DNA from: Opitutus sp. GAS368 | Lineage (GTDB): Bacteria > Verrucomicrobiota > Verrucomicrobiia > Opitutales > Opitutaceae | Reading direction: 5' to 3' | DNA length: 10,046 nucleotides | NCBI GenBank assembly: GCA_945861645.1 | Contig: CAMAVZ010000057.1 | Span: forward strand, 1-10,046 | Shown: positions 1 to 10,046 of the stretch, piece after piece | How the letters are laid out: each line of letters begins with the position of its first letter | How positions within the stretch are numbered: position 1 is the stretch's first letter | Made by a program: the position numbers and the translations under genes | Notes under the pieces: model-generated | Database searches by the model: none | What the model was told of the DNA's origin: nothing | Seen by the model: only the letters and a program-made list of their open reading frames with translations

Positions 1-78
1 GTCATGGAAATCAGCCGGCAGCTGATGGGGGGAAATGAGGGCCAGCGACATAACAACCAGCAGATGATTTATTTTCAT
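1..78 (-). CDS. 5' end of an exported protein with signal peptide (truncated by window edge)
   Basis: Reverse strand from ATG at 78 reads MKINHLLVVMSLALISPHQLPADFHD with no stop to the edge. It has a basic N-terminus, a hydrophobic core and a plausible cleavage site after LPA, and is co-oriented with the upstream dehydrogenase. Confidence 0.6.
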   Translation of the reverse strand, partial: MKINHLLVVMSLALISPHQLPADFHD

Positions 79-184
79 AGGGTAAAATGAGAGCGACCAA
101 CTCAATTTGTTAATTCTCCTCTCAGCGTCGATTCAGAAATGATCCTGGCACCAGTCTTTGTGAACTGATGGGTCAACCGCCGCA

Positions 185-1126
185 TCACACAGCGGGTTTG
201 GCCCGCTGCGCGAGCACGCTCAGAATTGCTTGGTCGCGCGCTTTCTCCAAATCTTCCAACGACCGGCCCGCGGCCGCCTCGTGCACTCCCTGAATAATGG
301 CCGCCTTGAGCTCGGGCGTTAATTCTGGTTGGCCCAGATCCGCCCACATTTTGGCGAAGGGCCCCGCAAGATGATGCATAAAATGAGTCATTCCACCCTG
401 ACCACCCCCCAGATGGAAAATTAAATTAGGTCCGAGCGCGCTCCATCTTAAACCCGGTCCTTCACTCACCGCGGCATCCACATCTGCGACACTCACGACT
501 CCCTCAGCGACTAAATGCACCGCCTCCCGCCAGAGCGCCGCTTGGAGCCGATTGGCCACATGACCGGGAATTTCCTTATTTAGGCGAATTGTACGCTTAC
601 CGAGTCGCGTATAAAATTGCTCAGCCGCAATGATCGTGGCGAGCGATGTTTTCTGTCCGCCGACAATTTCCACCAACGGAATTAAATGCGGCGGATTAAA
701 GGGATGCCCCAAGACACAGCGTTCGGGATGGCGGCACTCGCTCTGCATCACGCTCATCGCCAAGCTCGAGGAGCTGGACGCTAAGATCACGGTACTCGGC
801 AATACCGCATCCATTTCCGCAAACAATTTAATTTTAAAGTCGGCTCTTTCTGGACCATTCTCCTGCACAAAATCAACGCCGGTTAGCGCCGTCGGCAAAT
901 CGGCGTCAAAACGCAACCGCGCGCGATCAGCTCCGGGCGCCAGACCCAATGTGACCAGCAGCGGCCAGACCCGATCCACATAACCGCGCAAATCACGCTC
1001 CGCATTGGGCGCGGGATCTGTCGCCACTACATCCAAACCATGCGCCAGAAAAAATGCGGTCCAACTAGAGCCAATGAGACCAGTGCCGACCACCGCGACG
1101 CGTTGAATAGAATGCGAGGCGGGCAT
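185..1126 (-). CDS. 3-hydroxyacyl-CoA dehydrogenase family NAD-binding protein (L-carnitine dehydrogenase / lambda-crystallin L-gulonate 3-dehydrogenase-like)
   Basis: Rossmann motif VAVVGTGLIG, QENGPE, LASSSS, catalytic-His motif GHPFNPPHLIPLVEIV, KEIPGHVANRLQAALWREA and GPGLRW. The ATG at 1126 is preferred over the TTG at 1147. Confidence 0.9.
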   Translation of the reverse strand: MPASHSIQRVAVVGTGLIGSSWTAFFLAHGLDVVATDPAPNAERDLRGYVDRVWPLLVTLGLAPGADRARLRFDADLPTALTGVDFVQENGPERADFKIKLFAEMDAVLPSTVILASSSSSLAMSVMQSECRHPERCVLGHPFNPPHLIPLVEIVGGQKTSLATIIAAEQFYTRLGKRTIRLNKEIPGHVANRLQAALWREAVHLVAEGVVSVADVDAAVSEGPGLRWSALGPNLIFHLGGGQGGMTHFMHHLAGPFAKMWADLGQPELTPELKAAIIQGVHEAAAGRSLEDLEKARDQAILSVLAQRAKPAV

Positions 1127-1217
1127 CAGGGGTAGGTTAACAATCAAGAGGCCCAGCTAAATTTATGCGATGGTCGTGACGGGCGGCCTCCATTACATAA
1201 GAGCATGCCCCGCGTGC

Positions 1218-2057
1218 TCAAGTCTGCTGCCAAGCGCGGGCCAAAGCTTGCCGCAGGACCACGGCGTCTGGCCAAGCTGGCGGTAAGCCCGTGATATTGT
1301 AGCCGCCTCCGCCCGCAAAGTACGGCCCCATTTCAGGACAAGCGTACATCGTTTTGTTTTTATTAGAGCGAGCCCGCTTCCATAATTTCATCAGTGCTTC
1401 CACAAAAATGAGATAGCTTTTAACTTCAGGCGTCAGGACCCCGCGGTGAGTAACCGCCACCTGCGCGTGGTGGCCGTTAAAAGGACGGAAATGGACCTGC
1501 TCACTATTCTGCAGCAAAGCCGGATGATCGAGCAGGCGCTCAATATAATTACCGGGATGCAAATGTTTAACCGCCGCCAAGTGCGAGAAATCAAAATTCA
1601 TTTTAATCAATTCGCCCGTCGCGCGGTGATAGCGATCGGCAATCTCGTAGGTTTTCTCGGGCGTCTCGGTGCAGCAATCACGGTGAATTTCCAGCGAGAG
1701 GACAACGCCGCCGATTTTCTCGGCCGCGCGCACCAACTGCAGCCAGTGGCGCGTCGCCAAGGCGGGCGGAGTATCGTGGTTATCCAACTGCACATTAATA
1801 TGCACCGCACCGCTTTCTTTTTGCGCCCGGATCAAGCGGCTGAAATCAGCCGGTTGATCGGTGGAGATAAATCCGAGAATATATTTGAGGCCGTATTTTT
1901 CCGCGAGGCGGCGATGCTCGGGCGTCACGGCCGTAGTCAAGCCATCAAAGCCCGCGGCGGCGACAGCCTTGATTTTTCTTTCGAGCGACCACTCGCGAGC
2001 CACGACAGGATGACCAGTGAGCGACCAGAGATTAGCGATATGCGCGATTTGGGACAT
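1218..2057 (-). CDS. Xylose isomerase-like TIM barrel protein (sugar phosphate isomerase/epimerase family)
   Basis: 279 aa. N-terminal 'IKAVAAAGFDG' plus metal-ligand pattern LEIHR, FDFSH, HFR and CPEMGP, typical of the AP-endonuclease-2/xylose-isomerase-like barrel. Confidence 0.8.
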   Translation of the reverse strand: MSQIAHIANLWSLTGHPVVAREWSLERKIKAVAAAGFDGLTTAVTPEHRRLAEKYGLKYILGFISTDQPADFSRLIRAQKESGAVHINVQLDNHDTPPALATRHWLQLVRAAEKIGGVVLSLEIHRDCCTETPEKTYEIADRYHRATGELIKMNFDFSHLAAVKHLHPGNYIERLLDHPALLQNSEQVHFRPFNGHHAQVAVTHRGVLTPEVKSYLIFVEALMKLWKRARSNKNKTMYACPEMGPYFAGGGGYNITGLPPAWPDAVVLRQALARAWQQT

Positions 2058-2201
2058 GAGGGTAGGATTAAATTAGTTCGCTTATTTGACCTCTCGCCCA
2101 GCGGGAGTCCAGCCTGCGTAATTATTTCTGGTGAAAAATCATCTCCCCCTCCCCGCCAAAGTCGACTTGCCAAACCGCTAAACAACTCAATGCATTCTCC
2201 C

Positions 2202-3023
2202 ATGCCTCGCATTCCTCTCGAAGATAGTTTCGCCGACGTTATTAGCAAGACGCAGCGTGGCTACAAACTCACCGATGCTGCGCTCGTCGAAAAAGCGCAA
2301 ATCACCGCCAGCGATCTCGCCGCCCTCAAGGCTGGCGAAATTATTGAGCCTGCCCTCCTGGCCGTAGCCGGGGCGCTCGATTTAGGCCGCCATGCACTGC
2401 TCGCTCACGCCCGCCGCGAGTGGTACCCCGAACCGCCGATCTTCAAGCGGGGGTTCGCCATGTTTAATACCCCATTCGATGATATGACGGTCAACAGCTA
2501 CTTGGTCTGGGATAGCAAGACCCGCCTCGCCGCGGCCTTTGACACCGGCGCCAACTGCCAGGCCATGCTCGATACCATCGCGGGGGAAAATCTGACGCTG
2601 CGTTATATTTTCTTAACTCACACCCACGACGACCACATCGCCGACCTCGATCGTTTAGCCGCCAGCGGCGCGGAAGTGTGGGCCAGCGAACTCGAACCCA
2701 GCGATCGGCCCGGGGCGAAAATCTTCCAAGAAAATGCCCACTTTCATCTGGGTGAGCTCGCGATAAAAACTTTGTTCACCTGGGGCCACTCACCCGGCAT
2801 GACGACATTCTTTGTCACGGGATTATCTTGGCCCCTCGCCATTGTCGGCGACGCAATCTTTGCCAGCTCCATGGGTGGCAGCGCCACTCACTTCGATATG
2901 CAGCTCCGCAATAATAAACAAAAAATCATGAAGCTGCAGGCTGACACCGTCCTCGCCTGCGGCCACGGCCCGCTCACGACTCTGAAACAAGAAAAACAGC
3001 ACAATCCTTTTTACGCTCACTAA
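2202..3023 (+). CDS. MBL-fold metallo-hydrolase (glyoxalase II-like) with N-terminal HTH-like domain
   Basis: Motifs FDTG, THTHDDHIAD (HxHxDH), GHSPG, GDAIF, CGHG and terminal EKQHNPF. The first ~70 aa are helical and XRE/HTH-like. The true start is ATG 2202 (or 2190), not 1446. Confidence 0.88.
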   Translation: MPRIPLEDSFADVISKTQRGYKLTDAALVEKAQITASDLAALKAGEIIEPALLAVAGALDLGRHALLAHARREWYPEPPIFKRGFAMFNTPFDDMTVNSYLVWDSKTRLAAAFDTGANCQAMLDTIAGENLTLRYIFLTHTHDDHIADLDRLAASGAEVWASELEPSDRPGAKIFQENAHFHLGELAIKTLFTWGHSPGMTTFFVTGLSWPLAIVGDAIFASSMGGSATHFDMQLRNNKQKIMKLQADTVLACGHGPLTTLKQEKQHNPFYAH

Positions 3024-3024
3024 T

Positions 3025-3909
3025 ATGTCTCAAAAAATCGCTTTCGTCGGTACCGGTCGCATGGGTGGCAACATGGCTCGTCGCCTCAAAGATTGCGGCT
3101 ATCAGATCACCGCGGTCTATGACGCTCATGCTCCCCTGGCCGAAAGCCTAGCCACCGAAATCGGGGCGCGCGCCGCTCGCACCTTGGCTGAAGTCACTGC
3201 CGCGGCCGATCTGATCTTCACGGTCGTTACCGATGATGCGGCCCAACTAAAAGTATTTGCCGAAACGGGTGACTCATTGCTGATCGGCGCCTCAGGCAAA
3301 ATTTTCGTCAACTGCGCGACCCTCACTCCTAAAGTTCATGTGGAAGTTGAACGGCGCGCCCAACGCGTCGGGGGTATTACCCTCGAAGGCTGCATGGCCT
3401 CCAGTATTCCTCAGGCGCGCAACGGCACGCTCTATCTCATGTGCGCCGGGGATCGGTCGACGTTTGATCAGGTGCGTCCCATCTTGGAAAAATTAAGCAC
3501 CGCCCTCCGCTATATCGGGCCGACTGGGAGCGCCGCGCAAGTCAAGGCCCTGGTCAACATGGTCATGAATATCAACACAGCCGGTCTCGCTGAGGGGCTC
3601 GGCCTGGGCCAAGCTCTCGGCCTCGATCTTGATATGCTTCGGGAAGTTTTCAGCCAGACGGGCGCTAACTCGCAAGTGCTCAAGACCGATGGCGAGGACA
3701 TGCAAAATCGCGCGCACGATTGCTACTTCTCCGCCTCGCATGCCGCCAAGGATTCTGGCATTGCCTGCCAACTCGCAGTCGACTGCCAATTAAATTTACC
3801 GGTGGCCAAAGTTACCCAAGCACAATTCGCTCGGCTGACTGAGCTTGGCCTCGGCGGCCTAGATAAATCAGGTATCGCCGAGCTCACCTTTCCTGGTCGC
3901 CATGGCTAA
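3025..3909 (+). CDS. NAD(P)-dependent beta-hydroxyacid dehydrogenase (3-hydroxyisobutyrate dehydrogenase / 2-hydroxy-3-oxopropionate reductase family)
   Basis: IAFVGTGRMGGNMARRL Rossmann motif, ARNGTLYLM, catalytic Lys in AAQVKALVN, and AKD motif. Starts 1 nt after the MBL stop (TAA-t-ATG), implying an operon. Confidence 0.9.
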   Translation: MSQKIAFVGTGRMGGNMARRLKDCGYQITAVYDAHAPLAESLATEIGARAARTLAEVTAAADLIFTVVTDDAAQLKVFAETGDSLLIGASGKIFVNCATLTPKVHVEVERRAQRVGGITLEGCMASSIPQARNGTLYLMCAGDRSTFDQVRPILEKLSTALRYIGPTGSAAQVKALVNMVMNINTAGLAEGLGLGQALGLDLDMLREVFSQTGANSQVLKTDGEDMQNRAHDCYFSASHAAKDSGIACQLAVDCQLNLPVAKVTQAQFARLTELGLGGLDKSGIAELTFPGRHG

Positions 3910-4108: not shown

Positions 4109-5590
4109 CTAGTGCGACTCAGCGAAGCTGGTGATCGAATGCCATTCGAGCACTTCTTGCAGGATCGCGCGCTCCGTTCTTGATACAATTTTCTCCAAAC
4201 TGTTCCACGTTTGGCAGAACATCACCCGCTGTCGGCTATTCGATAAATTAAGCTGCATCTCGCGGAAGCGGGCGACGCGACGCTGGAGGTCGTTGATCGA
4301 GATCAGGGAAATGAAGGAGGCGGCGATGACCGGCAAGGCGATGGGCAGGAAATAGAACAAGCTAGTCTCAAGCGCCGGCGGGACGATCAGGTGGGCCGTA
4401 TGGCAAACGGCGTAGGCCAGCGTGCAAGCCATGGCGAGCAGCGTCGCCACCCAAAATCCGAGTCTTAAGCGACGCAAGAGCGGCACCGCGCGGGCCTCCT
4501 GCCGGCGATAGTATTTCAGTTGGTCATCGATACGTTTTTCCAAATAAATTCGCCGGAATTCTTCCATGGAGACCGGCTGGGCTCCCGCTGAGCGAGTGTG
4601 GAGAATCCCCAGCGAGCGGGTCAGCCCGCGCATGATGGGTAAATCAAGATCCTCGAATAACGGCGCCGCGCGGGGTAAGCCCCAGGTAGCCAAACCTGAG
4701 CGGCAAAATTCAGCGGCCAACCGACACCGCACCCAGTTGTGCTGCGAGTGATGATGCTGACGCAAGATGACCGCCACGCCCAAGGCGCCAGCAAGACAGA
4801 GTAATTTCAGCCAAGGAATAACGGTGAAGTGCAGATCAAAGGAAAGCGCCGCCGCCGCAATCAGCGTGGCCAAGACATGCAGCCCAACGGTCAGCACAAT
4901 CAAGCGGCGAAATTGGGGCGCGCCATGACTCGCCGCGAAGTCGCACTTTTGCTGAAACGCAAAGATCGGCGCTGGGGCGTCGAAAGGATTTTCGCCCCAG
5001 CCCGCTGATCCCACTGGGAGCGAATTTAAATTAACCAAAGTCTGATCGGTGCGTTCGAGGCGCTCAAAATTTTCGCGCCGCAGTTCGAGCGTTACCGCAT
5101 CTATCACCAGTACCGGCTTGCCCAGTGATTTGGCGTAATGCACGACCTCCGCCGTGCCCCCTTTGCCGCGCGCAGGTTGACCGTCCCAAACCGCAATCAG
5201 GACATCAGCGCCATCCACCGTCTCCATGCCACAATCGAGATAAGCATCCTCGCGCGAACCATTTTCCGCAATCACGCGCTCGTGTTCTGCGCACGCGAGT
5301 AGTTCCTCGGCGGTTAGCCATTCTGCCGGTAGAAAGTCTTTTTGAAATTCGGCTTTCGGTAGCGGCAAAATCGCGTGCCAGGAAAGACCAAGCGCCTGGG
5401 CCTGCTTAACAAAGAGCTGATCGCTGCCAATCGCGATTGAGGAAAGCGCAATCCACTCGCCCGCGGCCTCTTGCCGGAGCAAAGCCAGTGCCGTCGTGAT
5501 CGCACGAGCGACCCCGGCAGGATTCGCTACGGACCGATGTCCAGAAAAACCCACAACATGAAACAACGGTAAAACAGAGGAGGAATTCAT
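4109..5590 (-). CDS. SLOG (YspA/LOG-like nucleotide-binding) domain fused to two SLATT/DUF4231-like 2TM modules
   Basis: N-terminal VVGFSGHR, SSIAIGSDQLF, LPLP and DVLIAVWDGQPARGKGGTAEVVHYAKSLGKPVLVI indicate a SLOG fold. The C-terminal half has four hydrophobic helices with SLATT-type motifs WVRCRLAAE, YLEKRIDDQLKYY and TERAILQEVLEW. ATG 5590 is preferred over GTG 5611. Confidence 0.8.
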   Translation of the reverse strand: MNSSSVLPLFHVVGFSGHRSVANPAGVARAITTALALLRQEAAGEWIALSSIAIGSDQLFVKQAQALGLSWHAILPLPKAEFQKDFLPAEWLTAEELLACAEHERVIAENGSREDAYLDCGMETVDGADVLIAVWDGQPARGKGGTAEVVHYAKSLGKPVLVIDAVTLELRRENFERLERTDQTLVNLNSLPVGSAGWGENPFDAPAPIFAFQQKCDFAASHGAPQFRRLIVLTVGLHVLATLIAAAALSFDLHFTVIPWLKLLCLAGALGVAVILRQHHHSQHNWVRCRLAAEFCRSGLATWGLPRAAPLFEDLDLPIMRGLTRSLGILHTRSAGAQPVSMEEFRRIYLEKRIDDQLKYYRRQEARAVPLLRRLRLGFWVATLLAMACTLAYAVCHTAHLIVPPALETSLFYFLPIALPVIAASFISLISINDLQRRVARFREMQLNLSNSRQRVMFCQTWNSLEKIVSRTERAILQEVLEWHSITSFAESH

Positions 5591-5840
5591 GCGGGCGTTA
5601 GCGAATCGCACGCGACGCTCACAGGTGCGTCAACGTCAAAGCCGCCCGGGCCGACCGCTTGACCAGCATTGCAGGGCCTTTGCGGGGATCAGAAACAGAC
5701 CCTTCCCCCCTACTCACTTTTCGCGGTTGCCCGCTAGTAACACCACCAAGCTTCCGAATATAATGATACTATTTTGCGTTAAAAAAACAAGCCTGAGTTA
5801 ACCCAAAAGTTTCCTCACCCCTGACTAATTTTAGTGGAAC

Positions 5841-5869
5841 TTACGATGATTGCTGAATAATGGTAAGAT
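5841..5869 (+). promoter_or_regulatory. Putative sigma70 promoter for the 5927 gene
   Basis: TTACGA (5841-5846), 17 bp spacer, TAAGAT (5864-5869) with extended -10 TG at 5861-5862, in AT-rich intergenic DNA. Confidence 0.45.
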
Positions 5870-5926
5870 CGAACAAGAATTGATTTTATTTTTAGTTTAG
5901 TCGTTTAACATTAAATCGCGCAGAAA

Positions 5927-6658
5927 ATGAAAATTAAATTATGGTTATCTCTCATCGCGTTAACCGCGATTGGTTTCGCTCAAACCACGGAAGAACAAAT
6001 TGCCACCAGCTATCGAATCCAAGCAAAGCCAGGCAAAGATGCGGCTTTGAAAGCTGCTTTAATTGCGCATGGAGAAAAATTCCATGGCGGCGCTAATAGC
6101 TGGCGCATTGCCCAAGTAATTTCGGGAATGCAGGAAGGCATGTTTCAAATTAATGAAGGCCCCAATACGTTCGCTGGTTTAGAAGAACGCGGCGACTTAG
6201 GGCCTGAGCACATGGCCGAATATGACCAAACAATCACCCCATTGGTCGAGAGTCGCACCGGTTCCAACTATCTTCGTTTTCGGCCGGAATATAGTACGGG
6301 AACAATTATCCCAAAAAACGGAATGAAGGTTACCCTCCGCATTTTTTACCTTAAACCCGGCAGATTGGATCATCTCATGGCGAGCATGAACTTGATTAAA
6401 AATACTTGGGAAAATCTGGGGTGGAATGTCGCACTCTACACTACGGTATATTCCGGTGAACCGAGAGTTATCGTGGCCCGCCGGTTCGCCAATGGCTTTA
6501 AAGATTTTAGCCTCAGCGCTTCAGCGAAATTTACGGCTGCTTACAACAAAATGAACGGAGCCGGTTCTTACGAAAAATTCCAGGAGAATATCGGTGATGA
6601 TGTCAGCAAGGTTGACGAAGAGATTATTGAAATAATCGCTTCACCAATCAAAAAATAA
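5927..6658 (+). CDS. Secreted/periplasmic hypothetical protein with two NIPSNAP/Dabb-like repeats
   Basis: Signal peptide MKIKLWLSLIALTAIGFA|Q. Internal duplication TSYRIQAKPGKDAALKAAL vs TLRIFYLKPGRLDHLMASM (strand-KPG-helix, as in dimeric alpha/beta barrels). Confidence 0.7.
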   Translation: MKIKLWLSLIALTAIGFAQTTEEQIATSYRIQAKPGKDAALKAALIAHGEKFHGGANSWRIAQVISGMQEGMFQINEGPNTFAGLEERGDLGPEHMAEYDQTITPLVESRTGSNYLRFRPEYSTGTIIPKNGMKVTLRIFYLKPGRLDHLMASMNLIKNTWENLGWNVALYTTVYSGEPRVIVARRFANGFKDFSLSASAKFTAAYNKMNGAGSYEKFQENIGDDVSKVDEEIIEIIASPIKK

Positions 6659-6670
6659 TAGTTTGTTAAG

Positions 6671-6710
6671 GTGATCGCGCCGCCGAAAAAATGCGGCGCG
6701 GTCACATTTT
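6671..6710 (+). terminator. Intrinsic terminator hairpin after the 5927 gene
   Basis: 13-bp stem GTGATCGCGCCGC (6671-6683) / GCGGCGCGGTCAC (6693-6705) with one G-U pair and a 9-nt loop, followed by ATTTT, 12 nt after the stop. Confidence 0.7.
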
Positions 6711-6727
6711 AGGACCGTGCCAAGGCC

Positions 6728-6756
6728 TTGTCTAATTTTTTTGTGAATATTAACTT
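6728..6756 (+). promoter_or_regulatory. Putative sigma70 promoter for SIR2-TIR / STAND operon
   Basis: TTGTCT (6728-6733), 17 bp spacer, TAACTT (6751-6756), lying between the terminator and ATG 6772. Confidence 0.4.
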
Positions 6757-6771
6757 GGGATCTATTTAAAA

Positions 6772-8163
6772 ATGTCTGCCCCCACGCTTTCTGCCCTCCT
6801 CCTCGCCCCTTTTGAAAATGATGCTTGGGAGGATCTGCTAAATTTCATTGAAGAGAAAAAAGTCATTCCGATCATCGGGCCTGAGCTACTCACCGTTGAG
6901 ACGGAGACCGGACCGCAAAATCTTTATACGTGGCTAGCTCCCCGCTTGGCCACTCGGCTGGGGATTCCGCCGGAGGAACTCTCGCCGACGCCTACCCTGA
7001 ACGATGTCGTGGTGCGCTTCCTCGCGCGGCGGGGGCGACGGGAAGATGCGTATTCTCGGCTGCGCACCATTCTTCGGGAAACTAACTTTGCTCCTCCCTT
7101 GGCCCTCCGCCAGCTCGCGGAGATCACCGACCTCGATCTCTATATCACAACGACCTTCGATAGCCTGCTCGAAGATGCGCTCAATACCGTGCGTTTCGCC
7201 GGTCTCCGCAGCACCGAAGTCGTCGCCTACGCCCCCAACAAGGTGGCCGATCTTCCGTCCGAACGCGCCCAGTTCACTCGCCCACTCGTCTATCATCTGC
7301 TCGGCCGGCTCTCCGCTTCGCCCACTTATGTTTTGTCCGATGAAGATACGCTCGAGTTCATGTGCGCACTCCAAACGGAAGCGTACTGTCCGGAAAAACT
7401 TTTTGCGGCCCTCGAAGAAAGCCACCTGCTTGTGCTCGGCGGCGGCTTTCCCGATTGGTTAATGCGGCTATTTTTACGCCTAGCGAAACGCCGGCGCCTG
7501 TCCGACCCGCGGGAGGTGGGGGAAGTTGTCGCCGATCGTCAGCTTAACGGGGATACCGGCTTAGTGGGATTTCTGCAGCAAGTGAGTAGTCGGTCCCAAG
7601 TATTTGGTGGATCAGCTGACGGGTTCGTCGCGGAGTTGCACCGCCGTTGGTTAGAGCGCCGCGGGGCAACCAGTGGAACTGGATCGACGGCGGCAGTCGC
7701 GGCCGGCCCCCGACGTTTTTTTGCGCCCGAACGCGAAATGCCCGACCGCGCCGTGTTTATCAGCTATGCCCGGGAGGATTTAGCCGCCGTGCAACGCCTC
7801 AAAACTGCTTTCGACGCCGCCGGGATCGTCACCTGGTTTGATATGGATCGGCTCGAGAGCGGCGACGATTTCGAACGTAAAATTCAGCGCAACATTGCCC
7901 GGTGCTCATTCTTCATCCCCATCATCTCCGCCGCCACTCAACGGCGCGTCGAAGGATACTTCCGCCGGGAGTGGTCGTGGGCGGTTGATCGCACCCGGGG
8001 TATGGCCGAAGGCGCAGCTTTTATTCTACCAGCCTGCATTGATGACACCCCAGAAAATGGCGCGCTTGTACCGGAGAAATTTCTGAAAAGTCACTGGACG
8101 CGTATTCCCGCTGGTGAACCCGGCGCTGATTTCACAAAGCACCTGCGCGAGCTCCTCAGCTGA
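6772..8163 (+). CDS. SIR2-like (SIR2_2, degenerate active site) + C-terminal TIR domain protein
   Basis: Sirtuin-fold landmarks VIPIIG, YITTTFDSLLEDAL, VYHLLG and LLVLGGGFPDW, then a G/S/T/A linker. The TIR domain reads VFISYAREDL...WFDMDRLESGDDFERKIQRNIARCSFFIPIIS...YFRREW, with conserved Glu400. Confidence 0.85.
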   Translation: MSAPTLSALLLAPFENDAWEDLLNFIEEKKVIPIIGPELLTVETETGPQNLYTWLAPRLATRLGIPPEELSPTPTLNDVVVRFLARRGRREDAYSRLRTILRETNFAPPLALRQLAEITDLDLYITTTFDSLLEDALNTVRFAGLRSTEVVAYAPNKVADLPSERAQFTRPLVYHLLGRLSASPTYVLSDEDTLEFMCALQTEAYCPEKLFAALEESHLLVLGGGFPDWLMRLFLRLAKRRRLSDPREVGEVVADRQLNGDTGLVGFLQQVSSRSQVFGGSADGFVAELHRRWLERRGATSGTGSTAAVAAGPRRFFAPEREMPDRAVFISYAREDLAAVQRLKTAFDAAGIVTWFDMDRLESGDDFERKIQRNIARCSFFIPIISAATQRRVEGYFRREWSWAVDRTRGMAEGAAFILPACIDDTPENGALVPEKFLKSHWTRIPAGEPGADFTKHLRELLS

Positions 8164-8187
8164 TAAATAAACTACCCCTCTTTTCTC

Positions 8188-10046
8188 ATGAGTTCCAACT
8201 TACCCCAATCCTCGGTTGATCGCGAAAATCCTTGGCCGGGCTTAGCCACATTTACCGAAGCCCAACGGGCATTTTTCCATGGCCGCGACGAAGAGATTCG
8301 CGAACTCACCCGGCGACTCGAACGTAAAACGCTGACCGTGCTCTTTGGTCAGTCTGGCCTCGGCAAGTCATCCCTCCTCCAAGCGGGAGTTTTCCCGCGC
8401 TTACGCTCGGCTGGCTACTGTCCGATCTACGTGCGACTCGATCACTCTCCCGATGCCTTGCCCCTCGCTGAGCAGATCAAGCCGACGGTGACGGCCGCAA
8501 CGTCTTTGATGGGCGTGTGGTCGCAAGGCGGCGTGGCCGTGGCCGGCGAGTCTCTCTGGGAATACTTTCATCACCGCGATGACATTTTGCGGGGCGGCAG
8601 CGGTCAGCTGCTCATTCCCCTGCTCGTCTTCGATCAATTTGAAGAATTGTTCACCTTGGGGGCCGCGGCCGATAGCACCCGTGCACGTGCGCAAGCATTC
8701 CTCACGGAACTCGCAGATGTCGTGGAAAATCGCCCACCGGCTTCGTTTGAAGCTCGGCTCGATGCCGGCACTGTCGATGCGGAGAAATTTGATTTCACCC
8801 GCAGCGATTATCGCGTGCTGATTTCCCTCCGCGAAGATTATCTGCCGCACCTTGAAAGCCTGAAGGGGGCCATGCCCTCCCTCATGCAGAATCGCTTGCG
8901 GCTTAAGCGCCTCTCCGGCACTCAAGCGCTGGAGGCCGTCGTCAATCCCGCCCCTGGTCTCGTCACCGAAGATGTGGCGCGGGCAATCGTAACTTTTGTC
9001 TCAGGCCGGACTGATCTGACCCAAGCGGAAGTGGAGCCCTCACTCCTAAGCTTGGTGTGTCGTGAACTCAACCATCGCCGCCAAGCGGTGGGCGCTACGG
9101 CGATTGATGCCGCCCTGCTCGATGGCTCGCGCGAGACGATTCTCGTTGAATTTTATGAACGTACTTTAGCCGACCAACCGGACGCTGTCCGCCACTTCAT
9201 CGAAGACGAATTGCTGACTGATTCAGGTTACCGTGAGAATATCGCACTCGAGCGAGCGCAAAAACTCTTAGCGACTGCGGGTGCCCCCAGCACCGCGATC
9301 GACACGCTCGTCGCGCGCCGCTTACTCCGCATTGAAGAACGACTCGATGTCCGTCGCATTGAGCTCACCCATGATGTTCTCTGTGGGGTGGTAAAAGCGA
9401 GCCGCGCAATTCGGCAAGAACGCGAGGCGCGAGTCGCCGAGGAGCAGCGCCGCCAGGCAAGCGCGGCCCAGCTCTTGGCCGCCCAAGAGAGCGCAGCCAA
9501 AGCTCAGCGTTCAGCGCAGCGCTCACGATTCGTGGCCGTAGGGAGCAGCGTCCTCGCCGTGGTGGCCATCGGCGCGGCGATTTGGGGCTATATCAATTTG
9601 CGGCGAGCGGAAGCGGCCGAAAGCCATATCAGTGCTGAGCGCGATCGCGCCCAAGCTTCCCGCGGTGAAGCCGAAAAACTCGTGAGCTTTCTGCTCGATG
9701 ACCTTTACCGGCAATTAGAGTCCACCGGCCGGACCGCCGTGGTCAGCAGTCTAGCGAGCCGCGCCCTCGCTTATTTTGAAGCGCTGCCACCGGAATTTCG
9801 TGATGCGAGCAGCGAGCGCTATCGAGGCGTCGCCCTGAGTCGACTCGGCATGGCCTTATCGATGCAAGGCAAGACGCGTGAAGCCGAAGAGCCGATGCTC
9901 GCAGCGGAGGCTTTATTTAAAGGCCTGCGCGACCAGGGAGACAAAACGGTGGGATTGGCGGTCGATCTCACTGCCCTGCTCCGCCAGCGCAGCAGAAATG
10001 CTTATGGTCAAAATCGCATGGCAGCCGGGCTTGAGATTAGTAAACG
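8188..10046 (+). CDS. nSTAND1-type (NLR-like) NTPase with coiled coil, TM helix and TPR-like C-terminal region (partial, runs off window)
   Basis: Translated by hand and open for 619 codons. Motifs: NPWPGLATF...FFHGRDEE, Walker A GQSGLGKS (8347-8370), Walker B LLVFDQFEELFT, ISLREDYL, PSLLSLVC, LVARRLLR and ELTHDVL. These are followed by an R/E/A-rich coiled coil, hydrophobic FVAVGSSVLAVVAIGAAIWGYINL (9529-9600) and TPR-like ALSRLGMALSMQGKTREAE. Confidence 0.9.
   Translation, partial: MSSNLPQSSVDRENPWPGLATFTEAQRAFFHGRDEEIRELTRRLERKTLTVLFGQSGLGKSSLLQAGVFPRLRSAGYCPIYVRLDHSPDALPLAEQIKPTVTAATSLMGVWSQGGVAVAGESLWEYFHHRDDILRGGSGQLLIPLLVFDQFEELFTLGAAADSTRARAQAFLTELADVVENRPPASFEARLDAGTVDAEKFDFTRSDYRVLISLREDYLPHLESLKGAMPSLMQNRLRLKRLSGTQALEAVVNPAPGLVTEDVARAIVTFVSGRTDLTQAEVEPSLLSLVCRELNHRRQAVGATAIDAALLDGSRETILVEFYERTLADQPDAVRHFIEDELLTDSGYRENIALERAQKLLATAGAPSTAIDTLVARRLLRIEERLDVRRIELTHDVLCGVVKASRAIRQEREARVAEEQRRQASAAQLLAAQESAAKAQRSAQRSRFVAVGSSVLAVVAIGAAIWGYINLRRAEAAESHISAERDRAQASRGEAEKLVSFLLDDLYRQLESTGRTAVVSSLASRALAYFEALPPEFRDASSERYRGVALSRLGMALSMQGKTREAEEPMLAAEALFKGLRDQGDKTVGLAVDLTALLRQRSRNAYGQNRMAAGLEISK

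Follow-up and report, generated by a model that had tools for sequence, protein, structure and literature searches.

In the characterised Thoeris systems, phage infection triggers a TIR protein, which makes a signal derived from ADP-ribose (ADPR), and in ThsA it is the SLOG domain that binds the TIR-made 3'-cyclic ADPR (3'cADPR) (bioRxiv 10.64898/2025.12.03.692087). Type VII is described as a TIR protein with the SLATT effector ThsH, its signal being canonical cyclic ADPR (cADPR) (bioRxiv 10.64898/2025.12.03.692087), and type III as several TIRs with a SLOG-domain effector (van den Berg et al., 2024, as cited in bioRxiv 10.64898/2025.12.03.692087). SLATT effectors are reported to kill by way of the membrane and TIR plus SLATT systems to protect against phage (bioRxiv 10.64898/2025.12.03.692087; bioRxiv 10.1101/2024.12.27.630466), and SLATT with TIR or PNPase effectors has been noted (PMC7159879). 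The SLOG superfamily includes enzymes, and its YpsA-like clade includes cADPR sensors (PMC9503650); the nSTAND1 family is named in PMC8195603. The locus described here lies on a contig of Opitutus sp. GAS368 (Verrucomicrobiota, Opitutaceae), CAMAVZ010000057.1, whose 10,046 bp are the whole stretch analysed (hereafter the window) and which is contig C57 of a metagenome-assembled genome (MAG) of 2.30 Mb in 116 contigs, 84% complete. It carries a gene for a putative effector in which a SLOG domain precedes two SLATT modules (SLOG-SLATT), a gene for a SIR2-like domain fused to a TIR domain (SIR2-TIR) and a gene for an nSTAND1 NTPase with a transmembrane (TM) helix (Table 1). SLATT effectors associated with SLOG and with SMODS were reportedly predicted by Burroughs and co-workers in 2015, and the TIR proteins of the characterised Thoeris systems are generally soluble.

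An earlier note, made from the letters of the window, had proposed that these genes form a hybrid Avs-Thoeris circuit, in which a STAND protein senses phage proteins through TPRs and activates the TIR, whose product opens a SLOG-controlled SLATT pore. We propose, with moderate confidence, that the locus is a Thoeris-like system, nearest to types I, III and VII, in which a SLOG-gated SLATT pore would be served by membrane-tethered sensors; we are somewhat more confident of a general functional coupling of SLOG-SLATT to TIR proteins than of this reading of the window's own genes. All three genes lie where, and on the strands on which, they had been placed, and the calls of a SIR2-like plus TIR fusion, a catalytic TIR glutamate, a SLOG domain, GHR and GGT motifs, two SLATT domains, a STAND NTPase with a TM helix that is adjacent to and co-oriented with SIR2-TIR, and a linkage of SLOG-SLATT to TIR genes are borne out by the results below.

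The linkage of SLOG-SLATT to TIR genes is seen in the distribution of the genes among relatives. Each of 101 Opitutaceae genomes was searched with both proteins, a match being accepted at E <=1e-20 for the TIR family and at E <=1e-5 for SLOG-SLATT. The TIR family was matched in 40 genomes and SLOG-SLATT, nearly always as a single copy, in 36; both were found in 34 genomes, the TIR family only in six (G005, G024, G026, G034, G043 and G092), SLOG-SLATT only in two (G018, with a 43-amino-acid (aa) fragment, and G095, with a partial match) and neither in 59. The genomes compared are relatives, and within-genus contrasts are listed only for the 30 genera tabulated, in four of which (g10, g19, g20 and g30) one genome has both genes and another lacks both; these four contrasts are separate differences. 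For the local arrangement, pooled and de-duplicated loci were scanned with two TIR profiles, and the adjacency counts are approximate because gene ends were estimated heuristically. Among 50 loci of close SLOG-SLATT orthologues, a TIR gene is adjacent in 24, within 5 kb in eight and farther away in one, with none in the examined flank of 17; the corresponding numbers for 20 loci of distant full-length homologues are five, seven, three and five. SLOG-SLATT and the TIR gene stand head-to-head, with gaps of roughly 50-250 bp, in 16 of the first 31 loci. The TIR domain of SIR2-TIR itself is 44-55% identical (tblastn) to the same-family TIRs beside SLOG-SLATT and shares their invariant residues. 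These results show that the arrangement of these genes is not random.

The TIR proteins that accompany SLOG-SLATT are mostly membrane-anchored. Ten TIR genes beside SLOG-SLATT were submitted to Pfam, which found an N-terminal TIR domain in all ten and TPRs in eight. Among 59 open reading frames (ORFs) with an N-terminal TIR domain and at least 150 residues following it, no more than 130 residues separate the TIR domain from a TM-like segment in 47, and an IAVLPF-type motif comes after the TM segment in 29. We take this motif to be that of periplasmic TolB-N/FlgO-like modules; one of the proteins gave a weak FlgO match. TIR genes also occur in tandem arrays, for instance with seven TIR matches in locus L101, and the genomes richest in them have at least 16 TIR matches.

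The pairing recurs outside the Verrucomicrobiota. Three SLOG-SLATT copies from Steroidobacteraceae/Gammaproteobacteria MAGs (61-63% identity) are nested within the Opitutaceae clade of a quick maximum-likelihood tree, midpoint-rooted for drawing only, and the second TIR profile places a gene of a different TIR subfamily directly downstream of all three; in L124 this neighbour encodes a 734-aa TIR_2/ThsB_TIR protein with one TM helix and TPR_12/TPR_10. The SLOG-SLATT neighbours in Dehalococcoidia/SAR202 include TIR-TM-CARDB (L161), a lectin-like TIR-TM-3-keto-disaccharide-hydrolase-like protein (L160), TIR-TM-TPR (L182) and TIR-NB-ARC (L179) proteins. A TM helix is situated about 180-200 residues into four of the five cross-phylum TIR partners. 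Verrucomicrobiota, Gammaproteobacteria and Chloroflexota all have membrane-tethered TIR inputs with a presumed sensor beyond the TM helix. That the effector keeps pairing with TIRs whose non-TIR parts are wholly different argues most strongly for functional coupling over inherited synteny. Upstream of the Dehalococcoidales TIR-TPR and SLOG-SLATT genes, L182:5910-8405 encodes an 831-aa protein with RelA/SpoT, TPR, a sub-threshold LSDAT-type SLOG and RyR, which may be a second nucleotide-signalling component.

The effector is predicted to be a signal-binding-type SLOG domain fused to two SLATT two-transmembrane (2TM) modules that form a putative pore. Both SLATT domains are above the Pfam gathering cut-off of 26.3 bits (SLATT_3, E 7e-7, 30.1 bits; SLATT_1, E 7.2e-8, 32.9 bits), SLATT_1 also passes in NCBIfam (45.6 bits against a cut-off of 41), and the 500-aa protein contains four hydrophobic helices. 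Pfam found nothing on residues 1-200. The AlphaFold2 model, built with 31 homologues (pLDDT 87.6, pTM 0.79), has a Rossmann-like N-terminal domain there, for which the top Foldseek match in the PDB is YpsA (2nx2; E 1e-4, TM-score on target 0.71), followed by ShosA, DprA, Moco carrier protein and TM1055; the SLOG domain of BcThsA with 3'cADPR (7uxs) is also matched (E 0.025). On these matches the SLOG call holds, with the domain being of YpsA type. In the 31 SLOG-SLATT homologues G24, R26, S58-A60-G62-D64 and G151-G152-T153 are invariant and H25 is kept in at least 90%. As the alignment with orthologues begins at M8, the gene more probably starts at the ATG at 5590 than at the GTG. As in Thoeris type I (ThsB plus the SIR2-SLOG protein ThsA), a TIR with a catalytic-type Glu is accompanied here by an effector with a SLOG domain, the part that reads the signal in ThsA, but SLOG is fused to SLATT modules instead of SIR2. 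A TIR gene adjoining a SLATT membrane effector is shared with type VII and Shaseng (bioRxiv 10.64898/2025.12.03.692087; bioRxiv 10.1101/2024.12.27.630466). As far as their published descriptions, the only basis of comparison, go, the ThsH and Shaseng effectors carry a SLATT annotation without SLOG, whereas here SLOG precedes two SLATT domains and the TIR partners are membrane-anchored or STAND-coupled. Type III, likewise compared by description only, has in common with the present genes several TIRs per effector and a SLOG domain in the effector.

More distant versions of this effector have other surroundings. Two SLOG-SLATT paralogues with 33-37% identity (L163:11352-12548 and L173:4789-5877) are followed by a gene for a patatin-like phospholipase, not a TIR. 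In Streptomyces and other Actinomycetota (L183-L194) the SLOG part alone, at about profile positions 13-165, matches one gene, and at several of these loci a separate, weakly SLATT-like ORF adjoins it on the opposite strand, perhaps a split version of the effector.

Both domains of SIR2-TIR are recovered by Pfam (SIR2_2, residues 123-242, E 1.7e-12; TIR_2, residues 328-428, E 3.5e-16). F397, R398, E400 and W401 of the TIR domain are shared without exception by 78 paralogous TIR domains, and the FRREW stretch that they belong to aligns with FFKKEW of the Paracoccus PdTIR (3h16) and with SARM1 TIR chains. Judged by the invariant E400 and by these alignments, the TIR domain looks enzymatically competent. 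The whole SIR2-TIR model aligns over its full length with ThsA structures, a likeness to Thoeris type I, 8wc0 being the best Foldseek match (E 2.6e-9), and the SIR2-like domain also matches KomC (TM-score on target 0.71), Avs5 SIR2-STAND, DSR2 and SIR2/HerA. The domain differs, however, from the SIR2_2 NADases of defence systems (ThsA, DSR2, Avs5 and SIR2/HerA): it has the same fold and their His (H175, kept in 136 of 140 SIR2-TIR sequences) but Thr or Ser at the presumed Asn position, since in the motif TTTFD (residues 126-130) position 128 is T in 127 sequences, S in 13 and N in none of the 140. T128 is presumably the counterpart of the catalytic Asn, an equivalence that we assume from the TTNYD motif (TQNID in classical sirtuins), not from a residue-level structural alignment; a PDB sequence search with a profile of the SIR2 domain returned matches at chance level only. 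If the equivalence holds, the absence of the Asn suggests that the SIR2-like domain is not a standard NADase and more probably has a regulatory, NAD-binding or scaffolding role. Fusion to TIR and the missing canonical Asn set this SIR2-like domain apart from that of Thoeris type I.

Relatives of SIR2-TIR are numerous in databases, with 4330 of 8000 scored candidates at E <=1e-3, and the best 120 of them have both domains in every case and 64-99% identity. That SIR2-TIR is a core housekeeping gene, a candidate considered because of this identity to 120 proteins, is ruled out by its full-length presence in only 18 of the 101 Opitutaceae genomes.

SIR2-TIR and nSTAND1-TM are an obligate gene pair: nSTAND1 lies directly downstream of SIR2-TIR on the same strand in 21 of 21 pairs (20 relatives' loci), with 24 nt between the stop codon of SIR2-TIR and the start of nSTAND1 in the window and a 4-nt overlap in L035. 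A complex prediction of SIR2-TIR with residues 1-440 of nSTAND1 reached a score of 0.44, the best of three controls scoring 0.00; its runs have at least 80% of contacts in common, the partner pLDDT being at least 78. Of 80 solved complexes 58 reached the mark applied, as did two of 110 mismatched pairs; these counts are rough because own alignments were used. Only seven of those 80 complexes, but both passing mismatches, reached it with a score of <=0.60. The prediction thus lends weak support to a SIR2-TIR/nSTAND1 complex. The pair itself is locally rearranged in a few relatives. A gene for a small four-helix-bundle protein (TIGR02436) is inserted between SIR2-TIR and nSTAND1 at L034:8842-9246 and L038:10789-11160, and several genes of these two loci are extended at the N-terminus by translation of a DNA motif that is repeated upstream (e.g., ...LGVERSA...). 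Two nSTAND1 genes follow one SIR2-TIR gene in L032 and L034, a local duplication, and two complete SIR2-TIR/nSTAND1 pairs stand in tandem in L033.

The nSTAND1 module was found by Pfam at E 3e-34, and its Walker A lysine K60 and Walker B motif are invariant in 24 sequences. All 23 orthologue ORFs have one hydrophobic helix directly after the module. The gene of the window is cut by the contig end and about 450 or more residues are missing, as most orthologues have about 1070-1390 aa; in the region after the TM helix, two of five full-length orthologues have WD40 propellers and three are silent in Pfam. Pfam found no TPR family at E 0.1 in the 150 residues that follow the helix in the incomplete gene of the window, so the TPRs ascribed to this protein by the earlier note are unconfirmed. 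By topology inference the sensor part is variable and probably outside the cytoplasm: the repeat domain lies after the TM helix and therefore probably faces outward, unlike the cytoplasmic sensing of Avs.

With Avs/NLR-like STANDs, including Avs5 SIR2-STAND, the protein has in common that its Walker motifs are intact and that its C-terminal repeat sensor, either WD40 or helical, varies, and the SIR2 and TIR modules next to it are of kinds used as Avs effectors. It differs from them in that the effector is a separate upstream gene in all 21 pairs, the nSTAND1 profile beginning at residue 15 with no N-terminal fusion, and in that a TM helix stands between NTPase and sensor, implying an outward-facing sensor. 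A similar architecture has been described for PCTM, in which a ParA NTPase is followed by a C-terminal TM helix and periplasmic TPR, pentapeptide or SPOR repeats, with an effector gene (SLATT, caspase) upstream (bioRxiv 10.64898/2026.10.19.760177). Both combine a cytoplasmic NTPase, one TM helix, periplasmic repeats and an upstream effector gene, but here the NTPase is nSTAND1 instead of ParA and the upstream gene SIR2-TIR; PCTM, itself a computational prediction, is proposed to sense periplasmic or membrane perturbation (bioRxiv 10.64898/2026.10.19.760177).

Based on the Thoeris model, we propose that a trigger would be perceived by the nSTAND1 protein, which is anchored in the membrane, through its repeat domain or, at sister loci, by a TIR-TM-TPR protein through the domain that faces outward. 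The nSTAND1 NTPase would then oligomerise and bring together the TIR domains of the separate SIR2-TIR protein, which may convert nicotinamide adenine dinucleotide (NAD+) into a messenger derived from ADPR. Binding of this messenger to the cytoplasmic SLOG domain would cause the SLATT helices to assemble and permeabilise the membrane, leading to a growth stop or cell death. A single SLOG-SLATT effector would accept several TIR inputs that can replace one another, SIR2-TIR/nSTAND1 among them. The genome of the window contains exactly one SLOG-SLATT gene, one SIR2-TIR gene, one nSTAND1 gene and one further TIR-TM-TPR gene. The latter, on contig C12 (L195:8081-10459, minus strand), encodes 792 aa and is surrounded not by a defence island but by genes of lipid synthesis (for a CdsA-like protein, an acyltransferase and a CDP-alcohol phosphatidyltransferase) together with genes for a fatty-acid hydroxylase and a sulfatase.

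Several observations weigh against this reading. The three genes of the window do not form a conserved unit: only four of the 21 SIR2-TIR/nSTAND1 pairs, the window included, abut SLOG-SLATT, whose usual partner is a TIR-TM-TPR protein and not a STAND protein, and SIR2-TIR is present with no SLOG-SLATT match in three of its 18 genomes (G024, G043 and G092, 96-99% complete). The divergent orientation of SLOG-SLATT and SIR2-TIR was described correctly, but a foreign 243-aa gene, which had gone unmentioned, separates the partners within the window itself. The 17 close SLOG-SLATT loci with no TIR gene in the examined flank lie beside genes of housekeeping type (for PQQ dehydrogenase, GDSL lipase, ABC transporter, TonB receptors, amylase and beta-lactamase-fold, DUF885 and Moco-binding proteins); the six genomes of the 101-genome sample with such a locus still contain TIR family genes elsewhere. 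As the sampled genomes are relatives, the raw co-occurrence table overstates independence and significance. PADLOC, whose 2023 library predates Thoeris types III-XI, gave no system-level match for the window proteins, neither a ThsA nor any other match for SLOG-SLATT and, for SIR2-TIR, only a weak match of the TIR domain to ThsB1 (E 1.2e-4) and nothing beyond that domain. STAND-linked TIR and SIR2 proteins are described as usually being NAD+-depleting effectors, for which reason Yirmiya et al. discarded Avs-linked TIRs (bioRxiv 10.64898/2025.12.03.692087), and it is unusual for phage to be sensed by a domain that faces outward. The weight of the finding is lowered by the loose linkage of the exact SLOG-SLATT/SIR2-TIR/nSTAND1 trio, and the function of the circuit is a prediction from sequences and models. 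Many of these points would fit two separate systems that happen to be neighbours, namely a self-contained NLR/Avs-like abortive-infection module of SIR2-TIR and nSTAND1, in which the STAND protein, once activated, would turn on TIR and perhaps SIR2 and so deplete NAD+, and a SLOG-SLATT protein that answers other TIRs, such as the TIR-TM-TPR protein on C12, or none. The 17 of 21 pairs that have no adjacent SLOG-SLATT, the three nearly complete genomes named above, the low-GC gene between the two in the window and the preference of SLOG-SLATT for TIR-TM-TPR neighbours over SIR2-TIR speak for such a division, and so do the best structural matches of the SIR2-like domain (ThsA, Avs5 SIR2-STAND, DSR2 and SIR2/HerA), all NADase effectors. 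We consider this division possible, though it is not what we would expect, given that the TIR domain of SIR2-TIR belongs to the same conserved family as the TIRs beside SLOG-SLATT, that 15 of the 18 genomes with SIR2-TIR also have a member of the SLOG-SLATT family, that SIR2-TIR adjoins SLOG-SLATT in four independent loci and in two different orientations, and that the canonical SIR2 Asn is absent from 140 of 140 sequences. The hybrid circuit of the earlier note is consequently kept in part: the SLOG-SLATT/TIR linkage, the fixed SIR2-TIR/nSTAND1 pair and the conserved motifs stand, whereas the trio is not a conserved unit, the typical partner is not a STAND protein, the sensor is now placed probably outside and the SIR2-like domain lacks the canonical Asn.

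The proteins could also serve a purpose other than antiviral defence, in that receptors would report polysaccharides, wall damage, competitors or kin, and SLOG-SLATT would regulate permeability or dormancy in envelope or environmental signalling. The post-TM sensor domains of the N-terminal-TIR ORFs (47 of 59, with the IAVLPF-type motif in 29), the same TM helix in all 23 nSTAND1 orthologues, partner domains of the CARDB and lectin-like 3-keto-disaccharide-hydrolase kinds, which are typically extracellular, the many loci, including that on C12, among housekeeping genes instead of defence islands, and the 16 or more TIR matches of the richest genomes are all in keeping with this. We nevertheless hold it to be unlikely, because the described bacterial systems of TIR with SLATT or SLOG proteins are, in the sources at hand, antiphage (bioRxiv 10.64898/2025.12.03.692087; bioRxiv 10.1101/2024.12.27.630466) and because the distribution is patchy (40 of 101 genomes), broken copies occur (G080, G014, L147 and L151), cross-phylum copies are nested within the Opitutaceae clade and tandem diversifying arrays are typical of conflict systems. 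The role of the SLOG domain can be read differently as well. It might be an enzyme, either a LOG-like N-glycosidase or one that makes or degrades a signal, in a protein that acts alone; this would be consistent with the invariant Gly-Gly-Thr followed by an acidic residue, which presumably resembles LOG motifs, and with the TIR-less 17 of the 50 close loci. The SLOG superfamily does include enzymes (PMC9503650), but the best fold match is to the YpsA clade, the cADPR sensor ThsA is also among the matches and the co-occurrence with TIRs at genome level is strong, so that we find this reading very improbable.

If SLOG-SLATT and TIR proteins are coupled in the way that we propose, the fused SLOG-SLATT effector would join the Thoeris repertoire, envelope or external events could trigger nucleotide immune signalling, and many receptors would naturally converge on one effector, an architecture that recalls animal Toll-like receptor signalling. 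In one variant of it, a STAND NTPase would be the sensor and would act on a SIR2-TIR protein that has a gene of its own. We put forward, tentatively and as a rather doubtful extension, that this may be a bacterial surveillance of Toll-like-receptor style, in which single-pass receptors with outward domains (TPR, WD40, CARDB or lectin-like), and inside the cell either a TIR domain or a STAND that recruits SIR2-TIR, would sense phage adsorption, envelope damage or competitors. A nucleotide made by the TIR would carry the message to a SLATT pore gated by SLOG, and in Opitutaceae the receptors would have expanded to as many as 16 or more paralogues in a genome, all sharing one effector. The locus is also a tractable case for the role of a SIR2-like domain without the catalytic Asn beside a TIR domain. 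The earlier note had not recognised the combination as described. Systems of TIR plus SLATT (type VII, Shaseng) and of TIRs plus SLOG (type III) are in print, as far as the sources at hand describe them. A literature search found no description of the SIR2-TIR/nSTAND1-TM pair, the table of 29 putative effector classes of Yirmiya et al. being outside its reach, and none of TIR-TM receptors paired with a SLOG-SLATT effector, which that table may include.

Table 1. Features of the window, with positions, strand and the basis of each assignment.
Feature	Position	Strand	Basis
SLOG-SLATT_3-SLATT_1 putative membrane effector gene, 500 aa from GTG start	4109..5611	-	Pfam, NCBIfam, TM prediction, alignment, AlphaFold2, Foldseek
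SLOG domain, aa ~17-200, YpsA-like Rossmannoid fold	5012..5563	-	AlphaFold2 model, Foldseek against PDB, homologue alignment
SLATT_3 2TM domain, aa 221-305; TM helices aa 237-255 and 264-282	4697..4951	-	Pfam, hydrophobicity
SLATT_1 2TM domain, aa 356-490; TM helices aa 384-402 and 413-431	4142..4546	-	Pfam, NCBIfam, hydrophobicity
243-aa gene in low-GC segment ~5750-6770; signal-peptide-like N-terminus	5927..6658	+	GC profile, library scans
SIR2-like plus TIR gene, 463 aa	6772..8163	+	Pfam, alignment, fold match
SIR2-like domain, aa ~16-298, defence-type sirtuin fold	6817..7665	+	Pfam, Foldseek, alignment
TIR domain, aa ~326-463; catalytic-type Glu E400 (codon 7969-7971), motif FRREW	7747..8160	+	Pfam, alignment
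nSTAND1 STAND NTPase gene, cut by contig end after 619 aa	8188..10046	+	ORF, Pfam, orthologue comparison
nSTAND1 NTPase module, aa 15-426; Walker A GQSGLGKS (K60, codon 8365-8367), Walker B DQFEE (aa 149-153)	8230..9465	+	Pfam, alignment
Single TM helix, aa 448-466	9529..9585	+	hydrophobicity; in 23 of 23 orthologue ORFs
Start of post-TM, probably extracytoplasmic, helical-repeat-like region	9586..10046	+	Pfam, orthologues

The span 4109-10046 contains four genes rather than three. The additional 243-aa gene lies in a segment with a guanine-plus-cytosine (GC) content of about 47%, against 54-62% in the surrounding DNA, with AT-rich flanks around the gene cassette and a hairpin with a 13-nt stem after the stop codon. 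Pfam, NCBIfam and PADLOC gave no family match for its product, the look-alikes found with a language model are hypothetical proteins, most commonly of Bacteroidota, and tblastn found no match in the SLOG-SLATT loci of 36 relatives. It is probably an inserted, recent-looking cassette outside the system, and its candidacy as a fourth component is ruled out by the low GC, the Bacteroidota look-alikes and the lack of a match in the loci of the 36 relatives.

Broken copies of the genes were encountered at several places. SLOG-SLATT is split into two frames in G080:C32 (L103) and SIR2-TIR is split in G014:C3 (L050), two Gammaproteobacteria MAGs (L147 and L151) have the gene broken into several pieces, and in G018:C34 the 43-aa SLOG-SLATT remnant is all that is left, with no TIR family match in that genome. 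These copies suggest frequent decay and turnover.

Searches of the window with Rfam and for repeats returned nothing relevant. Bases 1-3909 hold ordinary metabolic genes, for a carnitine/3-hydroxyacyl-CoA dehydrogenase-like protein, an MBL-fold hydrolase and a HIBADH-type reductase. Among them, a 525-aa ORF on the plus strand (1446-3023) overlaps the minus-strand gene 1218-2057 and has a family match (MBL-fold hydrolase/glyoxalase II-like) only in its C-terminal ~270 aa (2202-3023), and its real start is therefore probably well downstream of the listed GTG.

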